DNA from: Mycolicibacterium bacteremicum
Lineage (GTDB): Bacteria > Actinomycetota > Actinomycetes > Mycobacteriales > Mycobacteriaceae
Assembly (NCBI RefSeq): GCF_943913955.1
Contig: NZ_CALUAE010000021.1
Span: 8,787-72,786, forward strand
Length of the DNA: 64,000 nt
Reading direction: 5' to 3'
The notes beneath the pieces are model-generated. The model saw only the letters and a list, made by a program, of their open reading frames with translations. It was not told the DNA's origin and searched no databases. This document shows positions 2,139 to 29,936 of this stretch, piece after piece. Made by a program: the position numbers and the translations under genes. Numbering within the stretch: position 1 is the stretch's first letter; every line of letters begins with the position of its first letter.

Positions 2139-4223
2139 TCACTCCCTACGCAACAGGTTGAGTCGGGCGTCCTGCGGTATCAGCGGCATGTTCAGCACGT
2201 GCGCGACCGCTCGGCTGGGTTCCAACCGGACGTAGTTGCTCTGGCCCCAGTGATACTCCTCGCCGGTGATCTCGTCACGGACCCAGAACTGGTCGTAGGG
2301 CTCCATACCCAGTGCGCCCATGTCTAACCACACGGTGCCGTCCTCCGGGCCGAACGGGTTCAGCGTCACCACCACGAGCACGCAGTCACCGGTGAGCGGA
2401 TCGAACTTGCTGTAGGCCAGTAGCGCGTCGTTGTCCACGTGATGGAAATGAATGGTGCGCAGCTGCTCCAGCGCGGGGTGCAGGCGACGGATCTCGTTGA
2501 GCCGGCTCAGGAATGGCTCCAACGAATTGCCCGCGGCGAGGGCGGCCTCGAAGTCGCGGGGGCGCAGCTCGTATTTCTCCGAGTCCAGATACTCCTCGCT
2601 GCCCTCGCGGACCGCCTGATGTTCGTAGAGTTCATAACCCGAATACACGCCCCACACCGAGCTGAACGTCGAGGCCAGCACGGCGCGGATGGCGAACATG
2701 CCCGGTCCGCCATGCTGCAGACTCTCGTGCAGGATGTCCGGGGTGTTGACGAAGAGATTCGGGCGCGCCACATCGGCGTACTCGGCGATCTGCTGGCCGT
2801 ACTCGGTCAGCTCCCACTTGGCGGTCCGCCAGGTGAAGTACGAATAGGACTGGGTGAAGCCCAGTTTGGCCAGGCCGAACAGTCGCGCCGGACGGGTGAA
2901 GGCCTCGGCCAGGAACAGGACGTCGGGGTCGTCGTTCTTGACCTTGCCGATCAGCCAGGCCCAGAAGTTCGGCGGCTTGGTGTGCGGATTGTCGACCCGG
3001 AAGATCTTGACCCCGTGCGACACCCAGTAGCGGACCACCCGCAGGACCTCGGCGTACAGACCGGCGGGGTCGTTGTCGAAGTTGAGCGGATAGATGTCCT
3101 GGTACTTCTTCGGCGGGTTTTCGGCGTAGGCGATGGTCCCGTCGGGCAACACGGTGAACCATTCCGGATGGGACTGGGCCCAGGGGTGGTCGGGTGCGCA
3201 CTGCAGCGCGAGGTCCAGCGCCACCTCCAGGCCCTGATCCCTTGCGGCGCCGACGAAGTCGTCGAAGTCGGCGATGGTACCCAGGTCCGGGTGGACGGCG
3301 TCGTGACCGCCCTCGCTGCTGCCGATCGCCCACGGCGATCCGACATCGCCGTCCAGCGCGGTGACGGTGTTGTTACGACCCTTGCGGTGCACCGTGCCGA
3401 TCGGGTGGATCGGCGGCAGATAGACGACGTCGAAACCCATCCGCGCGACCCGGGGCAGCTCCTTGGCCGCGGTGGCGAAGGTGCCGTGTACCGGCCTGCC
3501 CTCATTGTCCCAGCCGCCGGTGGACCGCGGGAACAGCTCGTACCAGGAGCCGAACCGGGCCAGCGGACGGTCGACCCAGATGCCGTACTGCTGGCCGCGG
3601 GTGAGCAGCTCGCGCAGCGGGAAGCGGTGCAGCAGGTCGGCGATGCCGGGGGACAGGGCCGCACCGGCGCGGACGAACGGGTCACCGGGCTGACGCAGCG
3701 CGCCGGCGGCATCGAGCAGCGGTTGGCGGTGCTCGCGCGGCATCCCGGCGGCGGCACGTTCGAGCAGCTGGGCCCCGACGATCAGGTCGTTGGACAGTTC
3801 CGACTCGCCCTGACCGGCGTCGAGCTTGGCGATGACACCCTTGCGCCAGGTCGCGATCGGGTCACCCCAGCCGTCCACCCGGTAGGTCCACATACCGACC
3901 TGATCGGGGGTGAACTGACCGTGCAGGACATCGGGGGTGCGCCCCGGTGTCATCGGCAGCAGCAGTGGCTTGATCCGCGGCGGCGTCACCGGCGCGGGTG
4001 CTTCGGGCGGGATGCCGGGCGGGTCGTCGACCAGTCGTGGATAGGCCGTCCCGTGATAGCGGACCACCAGGGTGGCGGCCACCGCGTCGTGGCCCTCCCG
4101 CCACACCGCGGCCTTGATCGGCACCACCTCGCCGACCACCGCTTTGGCCGGGAACCGGCCATTGGACAACACGGGCGCGACGTCGTCGATCTCGATTCGA
4201 CCGGCCACCCACCAACTCCTCAC
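2139..4223 (-). CDS. glgE: alpha-1,4-glucan:maltose-1-phosphate maltosyltransferase GlgE
   Basis: 694-aa ORF. Contains [54 protein letters not shown] and [18 protein letters not shown], which are GH13_3 GlgE hallmarks. Conserved position upstream of glgB. Confidence 0.9.
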
Positions 4224-4426: not shown

Positions 4427-7021
4427 GTGAAAGCCCTGAGACGATTCACCGTCCGAGCCCACCTTCCGGAACGGCTTTCAGCACTGGAGCGGCTGTCGGT
4501 CAACCTGAGATGGTCGTGGCACACGCCGACCCAGAAGCTGTTCGCCGAGATCGACCCGCGGCTGTGGCAGCAGGTCCGCGCCGACCCGGTGGCCCTGCTG
4601 GGCGCGGTGAACCCGCAGCGCCTCGACGAGCTCGCCGCCGACGACGAGTTCACCCGGCAGGTCGACGCGTGTGCCGATGATCTGGACAACTACCTGAGCC
4701 GGCCGATGTGGTACCAGCAGCAGCTCGACGCCGGCCGGCAGTTCCCCAACGGCATCGCCTACTTCTCCATGGAGTTCGGCGTGGCCGAGGTGCTGCCCAA
4801 CTATTCCGGCGGTCTGGGCATCCTGGCCGGTGACCACCTGAAGTCCGCGTCGGATCTGGGCCTGCCGTTGATCGCGGTCGGTCTGTACTACCGGTCCGGG
4901 TACTTCCGGCAGTCGCTGACCGCCGACGGCTGGCAGCACGAGAACTACCCGTCGCTGGACCCGCAGGGCCTGCCGCTGCGGCTGCTCACCGACCACAGCG
5001 GGCAGCCGGTGCTGATCGATCTGGCGATGCCCGACGGGGCCCGGTTGTACGCCCAGGTGCTCGTCGCCCAGGTCGGCCGGGTTCCGCTACTGCTGCTCGA
5101 CTCCGATATCGGGGAGAACGAGCATGATCTGCGCGGGGTCACCGACCGGCTCTACGGTGGTGACCAGGAACACCGGATCAAGCAGGAGCTGCTGGCCGGT
5201 ATCGGCGGGGTCCGGGCCATCCGGGCCTTCACCGAGGTCGAGGGCCTGCCCGCACCCGAGGTGTTCCACATGAACGAGGGGCACGCCGGATTCCTGGGTG
5301 TGGAGCGCATCCGCGAGCTCATCGAGGCCGGGCTGGATTTCGACACCGCGCTGACCGTGGTCCGCTCGTCGACGGTGTTCACCACCCACACCCCGGTCCC
5401 GGCCGGGATCGACCGGTTCCCGGTGGAGATGGTGCGGCGCTACTTCGGCGGCACCGATCTGGCCTCCCGGCTGCTGCCCGGGGTTCCGCTGGAACGGGTG
5501 ATCGCCTTCGGGGCCGAAGAGGACGCGTCGAAGTTCAACATGGCGCACATGGGGTTGCGGCTCGCCCAGCGCGCCAACGGTGTCTCGCTGCTGCACGGTG
5601 AGGTCAGCCGGGAAATGTTCAACGGACTGTGGCAGGGCTTCGATCCGGCCGAGGTCCCGATCGGGTCGATCACCAACGGTGTGCATGCGCCCACTTGGGC
5701 GGCGCCGCAGTGGGTCGACCTGGCCCACGAGCTGATCGGGGACGACCTCGGTTCGCTCAGCGAGGCCGAGACGTGGCAGCGCCTGCAGCAGGTCGACCCG
5801 GGCCATCTGTGGTGGATCCGCTCCCAGCTGCGCTCGCTGCTGGTCGAGGATGTGCGCGCCCGGCTGCGTCGGTCATGGCTGGAACGCGGTGCGTCCGAGG
5901 CCGAACTCGGTTGGATTGCAACGGCGTTCGACCCCGAGGTGCTGACGGTGGGGTTCGCCCGGCGGGTGCCGACATACAAGCGGCTGACCCTCATGCTGCG
6001 TGACCCGCAGCGCCTGGAGCGGTTGCTCCTGGATCCCGACCGCCCGGTCCAGCTGATCGTCGCGGGTAAGTCGCATCCGGCCGATGACGGCGGCAAATCG
6101 CTGATCCAGCAGATCGTGCGGTTCGCCGACCGGCACGAGGTACGGCACCGGATCGCCTTCCTCCCCGACTACGACATGTCGATGGCCCGGTTGCTGTACT
6201 GGGGTTGCGATGTGTGGCTGAACAACCCGTTGCGCCCGCTGGAGGCCTGCGGTACGTCGGGTATGAAGAGCGCGCTCAACGGCGGGCTCAACCTGTCCAT
6301 CCGGGACGGATGGTGGGACGAGTGGTACGACGGCGAGAACGGGTGGGAGATCCCGACCGCCGACGGGCTGGCCGATGAGACCCGCCGCGATGACATCGAG
6401 GCCGGTGCCCTCTACGACCTGCTGGAGACCTCGGTGACGCCGCGGTTCTACGACCGCGACGAGCGCGGGGTGCCGGTGCGGTGGGTGGAGATGGTGCGCC
6501 ACACCCTGCAGGCGCTCGGCCCGAAGGTGCTGGCCTCCCGGATGGTGCGCGACTACACCGAGAAGTACTACGCGCCGGCGGCCATCTCGCTGCGCGCCAC
6601 GCTCGAACCCGACAACGACGATGTCCCGTTCGGGGCGGCGCGGCAACTGGCCGCCTACCGCAGGCGCGTCGAGCAGCAGTGGCCGCTGATCGAGATCACC
6701 GATGTCGACAGCTACGGGTTGCCGGACACCCCGCTGCTGGGCAGCGAACTCACCCTGACCGCCACCGTGGATCTGGCCGGACTGGCACCCGAAGAGGTTG
6801 TGGTGCAAGCGGTTCTGGGCCGTGTCGATGGTGGCGACAATCTGCGCGACCCGGTGACGGTGCCGATGGACCATACCGGTGGCGCCGACGGTGGGCGGCA
6901 GGTGTTCTCCACCACCACACCGCTGCCGGTGGCCGGCCCGGTCGGCTACACGGTGCGGGTGCTGCCGCACCATCGGTTGCTGGCCGGGGCGAACGAACTC
7001 GGGCTCGTCACGCTGGCATGA
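4427..7021 (+). CDS. glgP: alpha-glucan (glycogen) phosphorylase GlgP
   Basis: 864-aa ORF with the N-terminal RLSVNLRWSWH..LF motif of Rv1328-type GT35 glucan phosphorylases. Divergent from glgE, as in M. tuberculosis. Confidence 0.88.
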   Translation: MKALRRFTVRAHLPERLSALERLSVNLRWSWHTPTQKLFAEIDPRLWQQVRADPVALLGAVNPQRLDELAADDEFTRQVDACADDLDNYLSRPMWYQQQLDAGRQFPNGIAYFSMEFGVAEVLPNYSGGLGILAGDHLKSASDLGLPLIAVGLYYRSGYFRQSLTADGWQHENYPSLDPQGLPLRLLTDHSGQPVLIDLAMPDGARLYAQVLVAQVGRVPLLLLDSDIGENEHDLRGVTDRLYGGDQEHRIKQELLAGIGGVRAIRAFTEVEGLPAPEVFHMNEGHAGFLGVERIRELIEAGLDFDTALTVVRSSTVFTTHTPVPAGIDRFPVEMVRRYFGGTDLASRLLPGVPLERVIAFGAEEDASKFNMAHMGLRLAQRANGVSLLHGEVSREMFNGLWQGFDPAEVPIGSITNGVHAPTWAAPQWVDLAHELIGDDLGSLSEAETWQRLQQVDPGHLWWIRSQLRSLLVEDVRARLRRSWLERGASEAELGWIATAFDPEVLTVGFARRVPTYKRLTLMLRDPQRLERLLLDPDRPVQLIVAGKSHPADDGGKSLIQQIVRFADRHEVRHRIAFLPDYDMSMARLLYWGCDVWLNNPLRPLEACGTSGMKSALNGGLNLSIRDGWWDEWYDGENGWEIPTADGLADETRRDDIEAGALYDLLETSVTPRFYDRDERGVPVRWVEMVRHTLQALGPKVLASRMVRDYTEKYYAPAAISLRATLEPDNDDVPFGAARQLAAYRRRVEQQWPLIEITDVDSYGLPDTPLLGSELTLTATVDLAGLAPEEVVVQAVLGRVDGGDNLRDPVTVPMDHTGGADGGRQVFSTTTPLPVAGPVGYTVRVLPHHRLLAGANELGLVTLA

Positions 7022-22753: not shown

Positions 22754-23482
22754 TCAGGCCTTGGGGCCGATGAACTCGTCGAGGCGGGCCGTGGCCGCCT
22801 TGCGGTAGATGGCGATCATGTAGCGACTGTTCCGGGTCCACGGGATGCCGAGCGCGTCGAGTGCGGCACAGAACAGATTGCGGATGTCGGTGGAGTGGTT
22901 GGTGAAGTGGTAGCGGACGCTCGCAACACCCCGATCGTTGGCGACGACCCGGCAGCCGTCGCTGTGGATGAGGCCGCGGACGAAGTCTTCGGTGGCCGCG
23001 TCGACGTGGGCCTGCTGCCAGGGTTCCAGCACGATGGGGCGGAGGTGTTTGCGGCCTGAACCGTGTTGAGGGAACAGGCACGGCCAGTGCTTCGAGTAGA
23101 GCCCGACGACGACGTAATTCGCTTTCTGCTGCTGCACGTGAGCGTGCTGCCCTTCCATCACGACGTCGATTGCCTGTCGGCAGCTCTCGATGATGCCCAG
23201 GTATTTGGTGTCGAGGGCAATACGGAGTCGCCAGACCCGGCCCATCCGGGAGAGGCAGCCGTCGCCGAGATAGAGGCCGAAAAGGTAGGCGTAGTCGGCT
23301 GACGGCAGTGTCGAGTAGTCGTGCGATCGGCAGTCGAGTGGGCGGGTCAGGCGTTGCGGAGGTCGGTTACGCCACTCCAGCACGGTCGTCCGCGGTACGC
23401 CGGTGGCACGCGATATCGCGCAGTCATTGAGGCCGGCAGCGATGAGCCGGTGAACCACCTCGAAGTCATCGACCGAGCGCAT
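22754..23482 (-). CDS. HTH-containing double-motif LAGLIDADG-like homing-endonuclease-family protein
   Basis: 242 aa. Two dodecapeptide-like motifs, YLFGLYLGDGCL and FVRGLIHSDGCR, are spaced ~100 aa apart, as in single-chain LAGLIDADG enzymes. The N-terminal 40 aa look like an HTH (AISRATGVPRTTVLEWR). Confidence 0.55.
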   Translation of the reverse strand: MRSVDDFEVVHRLIAAGLNDCAISRATGVPRTTVLEWRNRPPQRLTRPLDCRSHDYSTLPSADYAYLFGLYLGDGCLSRMGRVWRLRIALDTKYLGIIESCRQAIDVVMEGQHAHVQQQKANYVVVGLYSKHWPCLFPQHGSGRKHLRPIVLEPWQQAHVDAATEDFVRGLIHSDGCRVVANDRGVASVRYHFTNHSTDIRNLFCAALDALGIPWTRNSRYMIAIYRKAATARLDEFIGPKA

Positions 23483-24691: not shown

Positions 24692-25030
24692 ATGACAACA
24701 GATTGGGATGCACTCCCGGACAACATCAAGACGTTCATGACCGCAGTCGACCGCCGCGATACCGACCGAGCGCTGGGCACGCTCACCCCGGATGCCGTGG
24801 TCACCGACGAGGGCCACGACCACACGGGCCATGGCGACATCGGTACCTGGATCGCGACCGCGGCCAGCGAGTACACCTACACCACCGAGATCACCGGGGC
24901 GACCACCACCGACACCACCTTCGACGTCGCACAGCACCTCGAAGGTGACTTCCCCGGTGGGGTCGCCGACCTGCACTACCGGTTCACCCTCGACGGTGCG
25001 TTGATCAGCCGGGTGGTGATCGAGCCATGA
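24692..25030 (+). CDS. NTF2-like / SnoaL-like small protein
   Basis: 112 aa of acidic small alpha+beta cone-fold type. Divergent from the MerR gene and overlaps the downstream SDR by 4 nt. Confidence 0.5.
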   Translation: MTTDWDALPDNIKTFMTAVDRRDTDRALGTLTPDAVVTDEGHDHTGHGDIGTWIATAASEYTYTTEITGATTTDTTFDVAQHLEGDFPGGVADLHYRFTLDGALISRVVIEP

Positions 25031-25866
25031 GCAGGCGCTGGTTCATCACCGGTGGCACCCCCGGCAACTTCGGGATCGCGTTCGCCGAGGCGGCGCTGGA
25101 AACGGGGGACCGCGTCGCGCTCACGTCCCGGCGTCCGGAGGAACTGGCGTCCTGGGCGCGGGAGGCTGGCGACCGCGCGCTCGTCGTGCCGATGGACGTC
25201 ACCGATGCAGATCAGGTGCAGCGCGCGGTACGAACAGCCGAGGAGCACTTCGGCGGTATCGACGTGTTGGTCAACAACGCCGGCCGCGGATGGTTCGGGT
25301 CGATCGAGGCGATGGACGAGGCCTCGTTGCGGGCGATGTTCGAGTTGAACTTCTTCGGGGTGCTGTCGGTGACGCGGGCGGTGCTGCCGGGCATGCGTGC
25401 CCGCGGGGACGGGTGGATCGTCAACGTGTCGTCGGTGGCGGGTCTGGTCGCGGCGCCGGGCTTCGGCTACTACAGCGCGACGAAATTCGCCGTCGAGGCC
25501 GCCACCGACGCCCTGCGCGACGAGGTTGCCGCACAGGGCATCTCGGTGCTGACCGTCGAACCGGGAGCGTTTCGCACCAATGCCTATACCGGATTCGCGG
25601 ACGAGCCGGTCGCCGAGCCGATCCCGGAGTATCACGACATGCTGACCGAGGTCCGCGCCGCGTTCGTGGCGATGGACGGCGTGCAGCCCGGTGATCCGCA
25701 CCGCGGTGCGCGTGCGGTGATCGCGGCGATGGCCCAGGACCCGCCGCCCCGCCGGCTGGTTCTCGGCGCCGGCGGCTACGAGGCCGTGGTGGATTCGCTG
25801 GAGCAGACGCTGGCCGAGATCCGTCGCAACGAAAGACTCTCGCGCAGTGCGGATTTCCCGATCTGA
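25027..25866 (+). CDS. SDR-family oxidoreductase
   Basis: FITGGTPGNFGIA is the Rossmann TGxxxGxG motif, and YSATKFAVEA is the YxxxK catalytic motif. Confidence 0.8.
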   Translation: MSRRWFITGGTPGNFGIAFAEAALETGDRVALTSRRPEELASWAREAGDRALVVPMDVTDADQVQRAVRTAEEHFGGIDVLVNNAGRGWFGSIEAMDEASLRAMFELNFFGVLSVTRAVLPGMRARGDGWIVNVSSVAGLVAAPGFGYYSATKFAVEAATDALRDEVAAQGISVLTVEPGAFRTNAYTGFADEPVAEPIPEYHDMLTEVRAAFVAMDGVQPGDPHRGARAVIAAMAQDPPPRRLVLGAGGYEAVVDSLEQTLAEIRRNERLSRSADFPI

Positions 25867-25939: not shown

Positions 25940-28282
25940 TCAGCCCGCGGCACCGCCGGCGAGTTCGGCGGTGGTGAGATCGAAGGACCCCACCTGCCAG
26001 GCCTTCATGAACTGGTCCAGCGGCACGGCCAGGCCCTGCCCCTGCCGCGGTGCGCTGTCGTTGATGTAGACGACACCCTTGGTCATGTTGACGCTGAGCA
26101 CGGTGACGGCGTGGTTGGCCGTGTCGGCGCTGCCCCGGTACCACGCATAGTCCTCGCCGAAGTACTGCTTGTTCCACGCGTCGTAGACCAGCTTGTTGTT
26201 CAGGGCGACGATCACCGACTGTCCCTGACTCAGCGCAGCGGTCATGTTGTCCAGTGCCAGTGATCCCTCGGTCTTGAGGTATGTGGTGTGGTCGGCGTTG
26301 ATACCGAACTTGTTCAGCAGCGTGACGACGTCGGCCAGGTACGTGCCGCCGAGACCTTCGGTGTACATCGATTGGCCGACCTTGATACCGCTGGGCAACG
26401 TCTCGGCCAGTGTCTGGACTTCGCGTGCCAGTGCCACCATGTCGACCGGCATTCCGTTACCGGTCAGTTGCGCGATGACCGCGGCGGTGGACATGAGGGC
26501 GCAGGTGCCGAAGTTGCCCTGGTACTTCCAGTACTGGTAGTTGGCGAGGTAATTGCCATACTCGATGTCACCGATTGCCGGCGGATCGATCGGCTCCGGT
26601 TGGGCCACACCGAATGTGCGGGACAGATCGCCGCCGAGATCGGTGATGTTCTCGGAGAGGACCTGGACCTGGTGCACGAATGCCGCGGCGATGCCCGATG
26701 CGACATGGTGGACCGACGGCAACTTCCACACCCACTTGGACTTGGAGTCCGCCGGCGCCACATTCGGTGAACTGGCCAACTGGGTGGTGACCAGCTGGTA
26801 GTTCTGTGCCGCCCAGGCATTCATGAAGTCGTCGTAGCCCATGGTCAACCCTTGACCGTCGGCGCGGGTCGGGTCGTTGATGGTGACGGTGCCGTCCACG
26901 TTGTCGACGCCGATGACGACGACCGTCTTGGCAATGGGGTCGGTGCGGCCGTCCGCCGGCCCGACGATCGGCACGATCATGGCCTTCGTCGGATCCTGTA
27001 GGCCATTGGTCAGATCGTTGAACGCCTTGCTCCACTGGTCTCGGCCATAGCTGCGCAGGATGATACGAACGTCCCTGTCCTGCAGTACTTCGTAGCTGTC
27101 CTGCCAGTACACGATGCGGGTGTCCGGACCGAGAACCTTGCTGCCGAGCGTGATGATGCTGTCGGTGTTCGCCGCGGCATCGAGGAAGCTCTGCAGGTCG
27201 ACGACGGTCTTGGTCAGCTGCCCGTAGGCCATGGCGACGGTGGCCAGCGCGCCGGTGATGAAGTCGTCGGCGGCGGTGAAGTACTGCACATTCGTGTTCG
27301 GGTCACCGAACGGCAGGGCCCTGGTGATCACCTGCTGGGTGAATCCGAGAATGCCGCGCACATCATCGCGCAGCATGGTCAGGCTGCGTTGCAGCCCGTA
27401 GAGCTGGTTCATCACGGTGACGTACAGGCCGGCGCCGAAATCCTGCAGTCCGCGCAGCAATTGGCTGGGGGTGGGCAGCCCGAAGGGGTTGCGGGCCGCG
27501 GTCGCCACGGCGGTGGGAACCACCGCCGGGGACAGGGCCGTGGTGTGGCCGGCCGGCGCGGTGGTGGTCATGGTCGAGCTGCCGGCGTTTCCGGTCGTCG
27601 CACCGGTGGAACCGGTGGTGCCCAGCGAGGTGCCCGAGATCGCGGGTGCCGCAGGCGAAGTACCACGGATCGGTGTCGTGACATCGATCGCAGGAGCGGA
27701 GTCGGCCGCCGACGGCTGCGGTGCGCCGCCCGAGGTGGAGGTGCCCGATGCCGGGAAGGTGTCCGCACCGCCAGATGCGCCGGGGTCGCTTTCACCGTCT
27801 TCCTCGATCGTCGGCGACGCGACCTCGGTGTGGATCTCGCCGGTGGACGTCTCGACATCGCCGCCCGAGCCCGCGTCACCGGTCGACTCCTCGTGGGCTG
27901 CGTCGAGAACCTCGTCGATATCGCTCGACCCGTCCGACGAGGACGAATCCCGCCCGATCGCGGTCGAATCGTCATCGTCGGAGTCTTCCGCTGGGGTGAG
28001 AGCACCTGCGCGCGGCGGGCGGGGTCCGGCGGTGTCATCGCGGGAAGCGGCGCCGGCGGCCGATCCCGTGTCGGACGAGGACGCATCGGAGCTGTCGCTG
28101 GAACCGGCGCTCGCGGAGCCGGACTCGCCCGGGTCGGCGGCCGCTATCGCGGCACCGCCGAGCATGGCGGCTCCCATGCCAAGGGTCACCGCGCCCGCTC
28201 CGAGCCATAGGCGTGCCTGCGCGGCGCGCCCCTCGCCTGCGTCGCACGAGGACTGACCCGTACCCGTCCGGTCCACCGCCAT
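25940..28282 (-). CDS. secreted/membrane-anchored protein with acidic S/D/G/T-rich linker and tandem papain-like (C39-like) domains
   Basis: Start assigned to ATG 28282 (GGGGAG 7 nt upstream); the track ORF extends to 28369. The N-terminal hydrophobic segment ARLWLGAGAVTLGMGAAMLGGAAIAAA is followed by ~250 aa of low complexity. The C-terminal domain has Cys (NFGTCALMS), His (ANHAVTVLSVN) and VYINDSA...FMKAWQ. An internal copy has the same fold signature (TVVVIGVDNVDGTVTINDP...FMNAWA) but lacks the Cys and His. Confidence 0.6.
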   Translation of the reverse strand: MAVDRTGTGQSSCDAGEGRAAQARLWLGAGAVTLGMGAAMLGGAAIAAADPGESGSASAGSSDSSDASSSDTGSAAGAASRDDTAGPRPPRAGALTPAEDSDDDDSTAIGRDSSSSDGSSDIDEVLDAAHEESTGDAGSGGDVETSTGEIHTEVASPTIEEDGESDPGASGGADTFPASGTSTSGGAPQPSAADSAPAIDVTTPIRGTSPAAPAISGTSLGTTGSTGATTGNAGSSTMTTTAPAGHTTALSPAVVPTAVATAARNPFGLPTPSQLLRGLQDFGAGLYVTVMNQLYGLQRSLTMLRDDVRGILGFTQQVITRALPFGDPNTNVQYFTAADDFITGALATVAMAYGQLTKTVVDLQSFLDAAANTDSIITLGSKVLGPDTRIVYWQDSYEVLQDRDVRIILRSYGRDQWSKAFNDLTNGLQDPTKAMIVPIVGPADGRTDPIAKTVVVIGVDNVDGTVTINDPTRADGQGLTMGYDDFMNAWAAQNYQLVTTQLASSPNVAPADSKSKWVWKLPSVHHVASGIAAAFVHQVQVLSENITDLGGDLSRTFGVAQPEPIDPPAIGDIEYGNYLANYQYWKYQGNFGTCALMSTAAVIAQLTGNGMPVDMVALAREVQTLAETLPSGIKVGQSMYTEGLGGTYLADVVTLLNKFGINADHTTYLKTEGSLALDNMTAALSQGQSVIVALNNKLVYDAWNKQYFGEDYAWYRGSADTANHAVTVLSVNMTKGVVYINDSAPRQGQGLAVPLDQFMKAWQVGSFDLTTAELAGGAAG

Positions 28283-28679
28283 TGATTGCTCCCCATCATT
28301 GATTGACGCCCACGTAAAATATGTTGGCGAGCAGAGAATACGCAGGCGCGCAGTAAAACCGCAGCTCAATTGCTAAATGTTGATAGCCCCCGCAGTGCAG
28401 CAAATTTTCAAAAGTCAAATTTTGCATTCACTACGTGCGTTTGCCGTACAGGCCGAGGTCGCTGGCTACATCGCGGCGACCGGGGTCAGGCTCGCCGGCA
28501 CGAGCCCACGGGGCGCGGATGCTCGGCGCGACCCGTGCCGTGGCAGCGGGTGTGGAGGGTGCCCAGATCTCCTGCGCGCCAGATGCTGTCAGGTAGCTGA
28601 AATCGCCCCATCGTTGCGCCGTCGGTGTACCCGCTGTGTCATAGTCGTCCGGGCGTTTTGCCCTGACGAAGGAGTCCGC
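28283..28679. promoter_or_regulatory. unusually AT-rich ~400-bp divergent intergenic region with short direct repeats (CATTGATTG x2; CAAATTTT x2)
   Basis: 28270-28450 is visibly AT-rich against a ~68% GC background. ccATTGATTGctcccc and atCATTGATTGacgcc are present, and so is gcaGCAAATTTTCAAAAGTCAAATTTTGCAttc. The downstream amt start carries a GAAGGAG Shine-Dalgarno. Confidence 0.45.
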
Positions 28680-29936
28680 GTGCAGATCGACCCCGCCGCC
28701 ACCGCCTGGTTGCTCGTCAGCACCGCCATGGTGCTGCTGATGACGCCCGGGCTGGCCATCTTCTACGGCGGCATGGTCCGCTCCACCGGTGTGCTCAACA
28801 TGATCATGATGAGCTTCATCGCGATCCCGGTCGTCACCGTGACCTGGATCCTGGCCGGCTACAGCCTGGCCTTCGGGGCCGATGCCGGCGGCGGACTGAT
28901 CGGCGGGCTCGACCACATCGGCCTGTCCGGCATCGACCTGACCGCGGTGCGCTCCAATGTCCCCGAGCTGCTGTTCGTCACCTTCCAACTGGCCTTCGCC
29001 ATCCTGACCGCGGCACTGGTCAGCGGGGCGATCGCCGACCGGGCCAAGTTCTCTGCCTGGGTGGTGTTCGTCGCGCTCTGGACGCTGACCGTGTATTCGC
29101 CGGTGGCGCACTGGGTCTGGGGCCCCGGCGGCTGGCTGGCGAGCTTCGGCGCGCTCGACTACGCGGGCGGTCTGGTGGTCGAGATCGTCTCGGGTGCATC
29201 AGCATTGGCGCTCGCCCTGGTACTCGGTCCGCGCATCGGATTCAAATCCGAGGCGATGCGTCCGCACAATCTGCCCTTCGTCCTGCTGGGCGTCGGACTG
29301 CTGTGGTTCGGCTGGTTCGGTTTCAACGCGGGCTCGGCGTTCGCCGTGGACGGCAAGGCCGCGGTCATCTTCCTCAACACGCTGATCGCGGGATGCCTGG
29401 GCATGCTCGGCTGGCTGGCGGTCGAGCGGTTCCGCGACGGTCACCCGACCACCTTCGGTGCGGCCTCCGGTGTCGTCGCGGGTCTGGTGGCGATCACCCC
29501 GTCCTGTGGTTTCGTCACGCCCGTCGGCGCCGTCGTGGTGGGCCTGGCCGCCGGCGTGGTGTGTTCCTATGCCATCGGCTGGAAGTTCACGGCCGGATAC
29601 GACGATTCCCTGGATGTGGTCGGCGTGCACTTCGTCGGGGGAGTGGTCGGCACCTTCCTGATCGGCCTGCTGGCCGCGGAGATGGTGTCCGGCGGCCCCG
29701 CGGGCCTGTTCTACGGCGGCGGCCTGACCCAACTCGGCAAGCAGATGCTGGGCATCATCGTGGTGGCGGCGTTCGCGTTCACGGTGTCGTTCGTCATCGC
29801 GAAGGTGATCGACGCGACGATGGGCTTCCGGGTCACCCGGGAGGACGAACTGTCCGGTATCGACTTCACCCAGCACGCCGAAACGGCCTACGCCGAAGGG
29901 GTGCACGGCCAGCAGCACAAGCGGCCGGGTAGCTGA
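28680..29936 (+). CDS. amt: ammonium transporter Amt
   Basis: GTG at 28680 follows a GAAGGAG Shine-Dalgarno. Shows the Amt/MEP signature (LLMTPGLAIFYGGMVR, 11 TM). No glnK/glnB or glnD follows. Confidence 0.85.
   Translation: MQIDPAATAWLLVSTAMVLLMTPGLAIFYGGMVRSTGVLNMIMMSFIAIPVVTVTWILAGYSLAFGADAGGGLIGGLDHIGLSGIDLTAVRSNVPELLFVTFQLAFAILTAALVSGAIADRAKFSAWVVFVALWTLTVYSPVAHWVWGPGGWLASFGALDYAGGLVVEIVSGASALALALVLGPRIGFKSEAMRPHNLPFVLLGVGLLWFGWFGFNAGSAFAVDGKAAVIFLNTLIAGCLGMLGWLAVERFRDGHPTTFGAASGVVAGLVAITPSCGFVTPVGAVVVGLAAGVVCSYAIGWKFTAGYDDSLDVVGVHFVGGVVGTFLIGLLAAEMVSGGPAGLFYGGGLTQLGKQMLGIIVVAAFAFTVSFVIAKVIDATMGFRVTREDELSGIDFTQHAETAYAEGVHGQQHKRPGS

Follow-up and report, generated by a model that had tools for sequence, protein, structure and literature searches.

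A fused pair of papain-like modules, one predicted to be inactive, in an exported protein of Mycolicibacterium bacteremicum and its mycobacterial relatives

The stretch of DNA analysed here, 64,000 nucleotides of Mycolicibacterium bacteremicum (contig NZ_CALUAE010000021.1, positions 8,787 to 72,786; the window, below) with a G+C content of about 68%, carries on its minus strand a gene for a protein of 780 residues, which we call the tandem protease gene (Table 1). Its product combines a hydrophobic N-terminus, a long acidic linker and two homologous modules, each consisting of a conserved LP(T/S)P motif, a helix of some 35-40 residues and a globular domain. The open reading frame, which an initial annotation had proposed from the sequence, is real; it begins with an ATG at 28282, is preceded by a Shine-Dalgarno-like sequence, and the same 780-residue product is called in the same neighbourhood on public metagenome contigs. 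This start is preferred to a TTG at 28369 because of the GGGGAG at 28289-28294, and a longer TTG-initiated frame is unlikely. On balance we think it rather likely that the product is exported and unites, in a single chain, the two components of a papain-like cysteine hydrolase system (clan CA, Peptidase_C39_2-like) that is specific to mycobacteria, and from sequence comparison the inactive copy is probably a working partner of the active one.

Table 1. Features of the tandem protease gene and its product, with window coordinates
Feature	Residues	Coordinates	Strand	Basis or remark
Shine-Dalgarno-like GGGGAG		28289..28294	-	7-12 nt 5' of ATG 28282; read from sequence
Whole coding sequence	780 aa + stop	25940..28282	-	stop at 25940-25942; open reading frame list, translation
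Putative export signal or membrane anchor	1-49	28136..28282	-	sequence; A47, A49, D50 nearly invariant
Acidic Ser/Ala/Gly/Thr/Asp/Pro low-complexity linker	50-265	27488..28135	-	composition
LPTP motif and long amphipathic helix before module 1	266-322	27317..27487	-	P270, T271, P272, Q293, D307, G313 invariant; low-confidence modelled helix
Module 1 (D1), predicted papain-like fold without catalytic residues	323-503	26774..27316	-	
Position opposite nucleophile Cys594	Gly344	27251..27253	-	BLASTP alignment
Position opposite His724	Lys452	26927..26929	-	BLASTP alignment
Position opposite Asn741-Asp742	Asn469-Asp470	26873..26878	-	invariant in all fused and unfused relatives
Inter-module segment with second amphipathic helix	504-572	26567..26773	-	W519, P522, Q538, L549, D552, G558 invariant; aligns with first helix segment; low-confidence modelled helix
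Module 2 (D2), predicted papain-like fold with full catalytic set	573-775	25958..26566	-	
Predicted oxyanion-hole residue	Gln588	26519..26521	-	invariant 24/24; codon checked
Predicted nucleophile	Cys594	26501..26503	-	in NFGTC; invariant 24/24 and in every Cys-bearing paralogue; codon checked
Predicted general base	His724	26111..26113	-	in ANHAVTVLSVN; invariant 24/24; codon checked
Predicted third catalytic position	Asn741-Asp742	26057..26062	-	in VYINDSA; invariant 24/24; codons checked

The two modules are recognisably copies of one another; residues 266-515 and 516-780 share 24% identity over 255 columns (BLASTP, E 9e-12; tblastn, E 5e-9), and in both helices hydrophobic residues recur, by eye, at a spacing of three to four. 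Residue counts for each column were taken from an alignment of the window protein with 23 homologues (n=24). The residue order of clan CA, Gln...Cys...His...Asn/Asp, is present in module 2 of all 24 proteins and fails in module 1. There, the position equivalent to the catalytic Cys is occupied by Ala in ten proteins, Ser in seven, Gly in four (the window protein included) and His in three, but never by Cys; the position equivalent to His is Lys in all 24 fused homologues; and where Gln would complete the oxyanion hole there is Ala, Met, Ser, Thr or, in four sequences, a gap. The pseudo-protease and protease tandem that the initial annotation had read from this arrangement is thereby upheld. 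Its quoted motifs (NFGTC, ANHAVTVLSVN, VYINDSA and the internal-domain counterpart) are all present, as is the Lys that it placed at the His position, although the 'Leu/Gly' that it gave for the Cys position resolves to Gly when the modules are aligned by BLASTP. Within module 1, the motif AKTVVVIGVDNVDGTVTINDP includes both Lys452 and Asn469/Asp470. We call module 1 a pseudo-protease because it fails the Gln...Cys...His test (G344, K452); its homology to module 2, the replacement of Gln, Cys and His alike and the conservation of its core together lead to the prediction that it is inactive.

The disappearance of the catalytic residues could mean that module 1 is a functionless relic or spacer in the course of decay. 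Its core, however, shows 59% mean pairwise identity and 31 invariant positions, compared with 54% and 36 invariant positions for the core of module 2, its modelled fold is confident (predicted local distance difference test, pLDDT, 91.6), and it corresponds to an independent, conserved gene family (see below). Conservation of this order points to purifying selection on the dead copy rather than to decay. A second way of denying module 1 a partner's role is to suppose that it is an enzyme of its own with a Ser/Lys dyad, given that Ser stands at the Cys position in seven of the 24 fused homologues with Lys at the His position in all, and that several free-standing Cys-less paralogues carry Ser together with His. 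Yet the window protein has Gly at this position and 17 of the 24 homologues have Ala, Gly or His; we reject the dyad because the Ser is not conserved, and hence there is no conserved nucleophile. Taken together, we regard a relic or a Ser/Lys enzyme as very improbable.

The family to which the modules belong can be named only approximately. Residues 588-744 match the Pfam family PF13529 (Peptidase_C39_2) with 20.2 bits (E 9.3e-4), under the gathering cut-off of 24, and precomputed matches of the homologues to the same family are flagged weak or faint; the protein is best described, from its sequence, as a divergent relative of PF13529. The label 'C39-like' in the initial annotation therefore holds as a sub-threshold resemblance, whereas its alternative, a DUF3335 type, found no profile match: PF11814 (DUF3335) gave nothing in Pfam at E<=10, and PF09778 (Guanylate_cyc_2), which is related to DUF3335, reached E 0.017, far under its cut-off. 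Nor was there a match at E<=10 to PF03412, the bacteriocin-processing peptidase C39 of MEROPS, and in none of the window, M. neoaurum and M. aichiense does an ATP-binding cassette (ABC) exporter adjoin the gene. One homologue is named Peptidase C70 (AvrRpt2) in UniRef, though neither the profile nor the type III effector context of that family was found. A scan of the protein against NCBIfam returned no family, and searches of PDB sequences with the protein and with a profile gave nothing meaningful, the single match, Ixolaris (E 0.02), having arisen by chance. A report of PF13529 among slow-grower-associated domains (PMC10551460, odds ratio <1) was left unused, as it concerns proteins above the Pfam threshold and has no specific bearing on the present family.

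Structure prediction is more informative about the fold. AlphaFold, given 12 sequences, yielded a model of residues 266-780 that is moderate in quality (mean pLDDT 66.7; predicted template modelling score, pTM, 0.50), with domain cores mostly in the 70s and 80s and both helices below 50. Searched with Foldseek, it matches the papain-like structures 22oc and 3erv at E 1e-5 to 3e-5, and PeiR is among the top structural neighbours. The predicted structure has the clan CA arrangement of an N-terminal nucleophile helix packed on a beta-sheet lobe that carries the His and Asn/Asp. Two findings had been named in advance as fatal to the tandem, a C-terminal region of some other fold and an internal copy that retains Cys and His on proper alignment; the model points away from the first and the alignment shows the contrary of the second. 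A papain-like fold need not entail proteolysis, and module 2 might instead be a transferase, transpeptidase or lyase, like the phytochelatin-synthase-like Alr0975, the BtrH/CtaG-type acyltransferases or the 'P210 CD lyase' that 22oc represents. Such an activity is conceivable, if improbable; we found no literature on 22oc, the top structural match.

The main new finding, which indicates that the two modules work together, comes from relatives in which they are encoded separately. All close homologues are fused proteins of Mycolicibacterium or Mycobacterium annotated as hypothetical, and the fused form occurs in M. bacteremicum, M. neoaurum, M. frederiksbergense and their relatives. A profile search of 1.84 billion representative proteins recovered 990 relatives, of which only about eight clusters contain both modules; the remainder have a single module, mostly of the module 2 type, with a distinct set of the module 1 type. 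In the latter, Cys is replaced by Ala, Ser or His in every case, while His is kept in most and Asn-Asp in all. Word-indexed homologue searches contributed less; module 1 alone returned one fragment and the module 2 alignment mostly fused proteins that were already known, probably because low-complexity words crowd the candidates.

The loci that we fetched, which are designated by L numbers, were scanned with separate hidden Markov models for module 1 and module 2, and the catalytic columns were read off. In 17 loci with fused genes, the His position of module 1 is Lys without exception and module 2 has Gln, Cys, His, Asn and Asp. The unfused set comprises 12 loci (L005-L008, L024-L031) from about ten genomes, among them Mycobacterium sp. 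WMMD1722, Mycolicibacterium sp. F2034L, M. sphagni, M. rhodesiae JS60, M. vinylchloridicum and strains RTGN5 and BK086; eight of them were added by a scan of one genome per species, which contributed M. sphagni, M. rhodesiae JS60 and M. vinylchloridicum. At all 12 loci, each Cys-less gene, which has Ala, Ser or His at the Cys position, retains the His and has also lost the Gln, is followed immediately and in the same orientation by a gene with the complete Gln-Cys-His-Asn-Asp set. The stop and start codons of neighbours often overlap; on a metagenome contig, a Cys-less gene overlaps the start of the Cys-bearing gene by 4 bp and a further Cys-less gene comes next, and in L030 (M. rhodesiae JS60) the genes lie at 1392-2639 and 2674-3780, with a third ending at 4970. 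Arrays reach four genes, which in Mycobacterium sp. WMMD1722 follow the order Cys-less, Cys-bearing, Cys-less, Cys-bearing, and the pairing is present also in Mycolicibacterium sp. F2034L and one further assembly. Each unfused protein has its own export segment, Ser-rich spacer and amphipathic helix.

Since the pair is separate, adjacent and in the same order in other mycobacteria, we consider the window gene to be a fusion of a Cys-less and a Cys-bearing gene. The relationship is of the Rosetta-stone kind, as seen in the gene order at the 12 unfused loci, and the profile search assigns the free Cys-less genes to module 1 positions. The operon pairing also supports the partner role that the initial annotation had guessed for the dead domain. 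Both forms are found in a single genome, that of Mycobacterium sp. RTGN5, which has a fused tandem gene as well as an unfused four-gene array (the L019/L025 pair of loci); the fusion did not, therefore, simply replace the gene pair. The unfused proteins have a further peculiarity at their C-termini. Of 32 complete sequences, Cys-less and Cys-bearing together, 30 end in a hydrophobic residue followed by two Ala (IAA, LAA, VAA, MAA), the exceptions being VAAR and NAA. No fused protein has this tail, and the window protein ends in ...GGAAG. The hydrophobic-Ala-Ala tail is reminiscent of an ssrA-type degron or of a product of cleavage, and to judge from its sequence might be a signal for stability, sorting or docking.

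Several observations weigh against the interpretation of module 1 as a working partner in a two-component cysteine hydrolase, or limit its reach. The unfused loci share ancestry and so are not twelve independent observations. In M. komossense (L034, 2210-6260), two Cys-bearing paralogues are adjacent to one another and have no Cys-less neighbour. A distant relative in Embleya spp. (L032/L033, 5001-6128) is encoded within an operon alongside three genes for dynamin-like GTPases. These two cases indicate that a dead partner is not required across the wider family, and comparison of the sequences suggests that it is a feature of one mycobacterial subfamily and not of C39_2-like proteins in general. 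Pfam membership is sub-threshold, relatives are annotated only as 'hypothetical protein' or 'C39 family peptidase', and the tandem model, with its modest overall score and poorly predicted helices, offers no confident interface between the modules. The M. komossense paralogues have a different, longer C-terminal extension and are preceded by a gene for a 506-residue, Gly-rich, PGRS-like protein; the Embleya protein is Cys-bearing and cytoplasmic, with an Asp/Pro/Tyr-rich N-terminus in place of an export signal.

The N-terminal segment is the best conserved part of the family, with 77% mean pairwise identity compared with 54-59% for the folded domains, and every unfused relative is headed by a similar Gly/Ala-rich hydrophobic segment. 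Its first part is polar and includes Arg19 and Arg24; residues 25-49 (28136-28210) are a stretch of 25 uncharged, Gly/Ala/Leu-type residues that ends in AIAAA before Asp50. Reading of the sequence revealed neither a lipobox Cys nor a twin-arginine motif. The hydrophobic anchor that the initial annotation had proposed is thus borne out as a hydrophobic segment, but the conserved A-x-A|D leaves room for a signal peptide, and the protein may be cleaved there rather than anchored. The length and glycine pattern of the segment would also fit a membrane anchor, and conservation at this level, unusual for a plain signal peptide, hints at something more than a generic one.

The linker, by comparison, is the least conserved part, with 25% mean pairwise identity among the 24 aligned homologues. 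It is acidic, as had been claimed, with a net charge of -27 and a composition (residues 51-265) of 18% Ser, 17% Ala, 13% Gly, 13% Thr and 10% Asp, but it is 216 residues long, counted from Asp50, and not the supposed 250 or so. O-glycosylation is plausible for Ser/Thr-rich mycobacterial spacers of this type. The linker DNA had been thought simple-sequence-like and a candidate hotspot for contraction or expansion, neither of which we can confirm: the one signal from Tandem Repeats Finder was a weak 21-bp x 2 match (27929-27970), which is no true tandem repeat, and there are two indels, both small, relative to the nearest relative, M. bacteremicum DSM 45578. Between these two proteins the linker is 84% identical and the folded part 98%. 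Linker length does vary, from 88 to 217 residues in all of the 24 homologues but one (a 532-residue entry that is probably mis-started), though this is no hotspot in the usual sense; the sequences suggest a fast-evolving, disordered spacer that is not driven by repeats.

In proposing how such a protein would work, we need to account for the retention of a dead module beside a live one. Module 2 would be the catalytic subunit, cleaving a peptide or amide bond in the envelope or the medium by means of a thiolate-imidazolium pair, and module 1 would be its non-catalytic partner. The latter might present the substrate through a remodelled cleft, defined by the small residue and the invariant Lys, or it might hold module 2 in an active or inactive state, as a form of allosteric control. 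The two amphipathic helices could pair with one another or regulate the enzyme in the manner of a pro-region. If the N-terminus were uncleaved, the spacer would allow the catalytic pair to reach away from the membrane; if it were cleaved, the spacer would merely be carried along with the secreted protein.

Our leading guess for the substrate is a cell-wall peptide. At two loci (L006, 10189-11952; L008, 8173-9936), the unfused array is followed directly, in the same orientation, by a gene for a lipoprotein class-B penicillin-binding protein (MecA_N + Transpeptidase, 587 aa), and phage lysins of Gram-positive hosts have PF13529 among their listed catalytic domains (PMC8223927). Both facts would fit a protein that remodels the mycobacterial wall as an endopeptidase or amidase of peptidoglycan, with module 1 as a dead wall-binding or activating domain comparable to degenerate LytM or NlpC/P60 domains. 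However, the two genomes are syntenic at this point and provide one observation between them; the fused gene has no wall gene in its vicinity, whether in the window, in M. neoaurum or in M. aichiense; and the Pfam scan revealed no recognisable wall-binding domain. The adjacency of the penicillin-binding protein, the likeness to PeiR and the presence of PF13529 in phage lysins are weak hints, none of which discriminates strongly, and a dedicated wall-remodelling enzyme of this sort seems to us doubtful, though well worth entertaining. We would be equally tentative about a heteromeric envelope hydrolase in which the Cys-less paralogue is the obligatory substrate receptor or allosteric activator of the Cys-bearing one, organised in alternating arrays with hydrophobic-Ala-Ala tails as well as in the single-chain fusion, and acting on the wall beside the class-B penicillin-binding protein. 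Such a system would be comparable to MPN-/MPN+ pairs or EnvC-amidase pairs.

The genomic setting offers a different suggestion. In the window, the tandem protease gene stands alone, convergent with a short-chain dehydrogenase (SDR) gene at 25027-25866 (+) and divergent from an ammonium transporter (Amt) gene, with about 400 bp between the two; the fused gene of M. neoaurum is likewise flanked by ammonium transporter and SDR genes, and is again divergent from Amt at about this distance. This might indicate a secreted nutritional protease for nitrogen acquisition, functionally tied to Amt, and an export signal and long spacer would suit an extracellular enzyme. Against this, the fused gene of M. 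aichiense lies in a nitrile hydratase region and has lost the Amt adjacency, as have all unfused loci, and neither a conserved dead partner nor strict pairing is expected of a bulk digestive protease. We think such a role unlikely. A conserved operon partner of the fused gene can also be discounted because M. neoaurum and M. aichiense do not have the same genes beside it, as can a toxin-immunity or type VII effector system, given the general export signal and the lack of a conserved small immunity-like gene downstream. A scan for consensus promoters and terminators around the gene found none, and tblastn detected no further paralogue in the window.

Some details of the neighbourhood are recorded here for their own sake. 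The longest Amt reading frame, 28377-29936 (+), runs into the divergent intergenic region with some 100 additional codons at its N-terminal end; as public contigs call Amt as a protein of 418 residues, its true start is placed near 28680. The gene is followed not by glnB/glnD but by a convergent DUF4333 gene. At the syntenic locus in M. neoaurum (L001, 10463-11758), an additional gene, not present in the window, lies between the tandem protease and SDR genes; its 431-residue product combines a signal peptide and a C-terminal membrane anchor with a very acidic region rich in Pro and Glu. Elsewhere in the window, a free-standing reading frame of 242 residues at 22754-23482 (-), flanked by genes for a transporter and a MerR-family regulator, matches the homing-endonuclease-like LAGLIDADG_3 family with 26.4 bits (E 8e-6), above the cut-off of 22.5.

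The occurrence of the same modules as one fused protein in one lineage and as strictly alternating separate genes elsewhere amounts to a natural experiment, and predicts that the two are physical and functional partners. If their substrate were a cell-wall component, they would constitute a new class of hydrolase in mycobacterial envelope biology; the hosts are environmental fast growers with no evident tie to a major open question, and we judge the value of the finding to be moderate. Neither the fold nor the combination of pseudo-enzyme and enzyme is new; what had not been noted before is that combination in an exported, C39_2-like mycobacterial family. Our literature searches found no study of this family among work on C39-like secreted peptidases in mycobacteria, and no description of dead-paralogue control for C39_2-like papain-fold proteins or exported mycobacterial cysteine proteases.

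The nearest known relatives and analogues each differ from the window protein in one respect or another. PF13529 belongs to clan CA and has a solved example in 3erv, a putative C39-like peptidase of Bacillus anthracis; by comparison, the window protein joins a dead module to a second one and has, in addition, amphipathic helices and an acidic spacer of 216 residues. C39_2 proteins are described as single-domain peptidases in a recent, comprehensive classification of papain-like proteins (PMC10318531); neither 'tandem' nor 'pseudoenzyme' turned up when its text was searched for these terms, and its mentions of inactive families do not concern C39_2. Unlike the C39 domains of PCAT/ComA transporters and the degenerate C39-like domain (CLD) of HlyB (3zua), the window protein is neither fused to nor near an ABC transporter, shows no sign of double-glycine leader substrates, and has dead and live domains together. 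Control of a live enzyme by a catalytically dead paralogue is familiar from eukaryotes and from a few bacterial systems. In CspB/CspA/CspC of Clostridioides difficile, the first two are produced as a single CspBA fusion; this system and the AdoMetDC enzyme-prozyme of T. brucei likewise retain a dead paralogue beside, or fused to, an active enzyme. Regulation of the active enzyme by its dead paralogue has been described for both the Csp and enzyme-prozyme pairs (PMC7200643, PMC5201418). However, their folds are different (subtilisin-like serine proteases and a decarboxylase), and their roles are established by experiment, whereas the role of the present family is argued from conservation and gene order. 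SERA5 of Plasmodium is a papain-fold pseudo-protease with Ser for Cys, where module 1 has Gly and Lys in place of Ser and His; nor does the SERA5 polypeptide include an active paralogue next to the dead one, as the window protein does.

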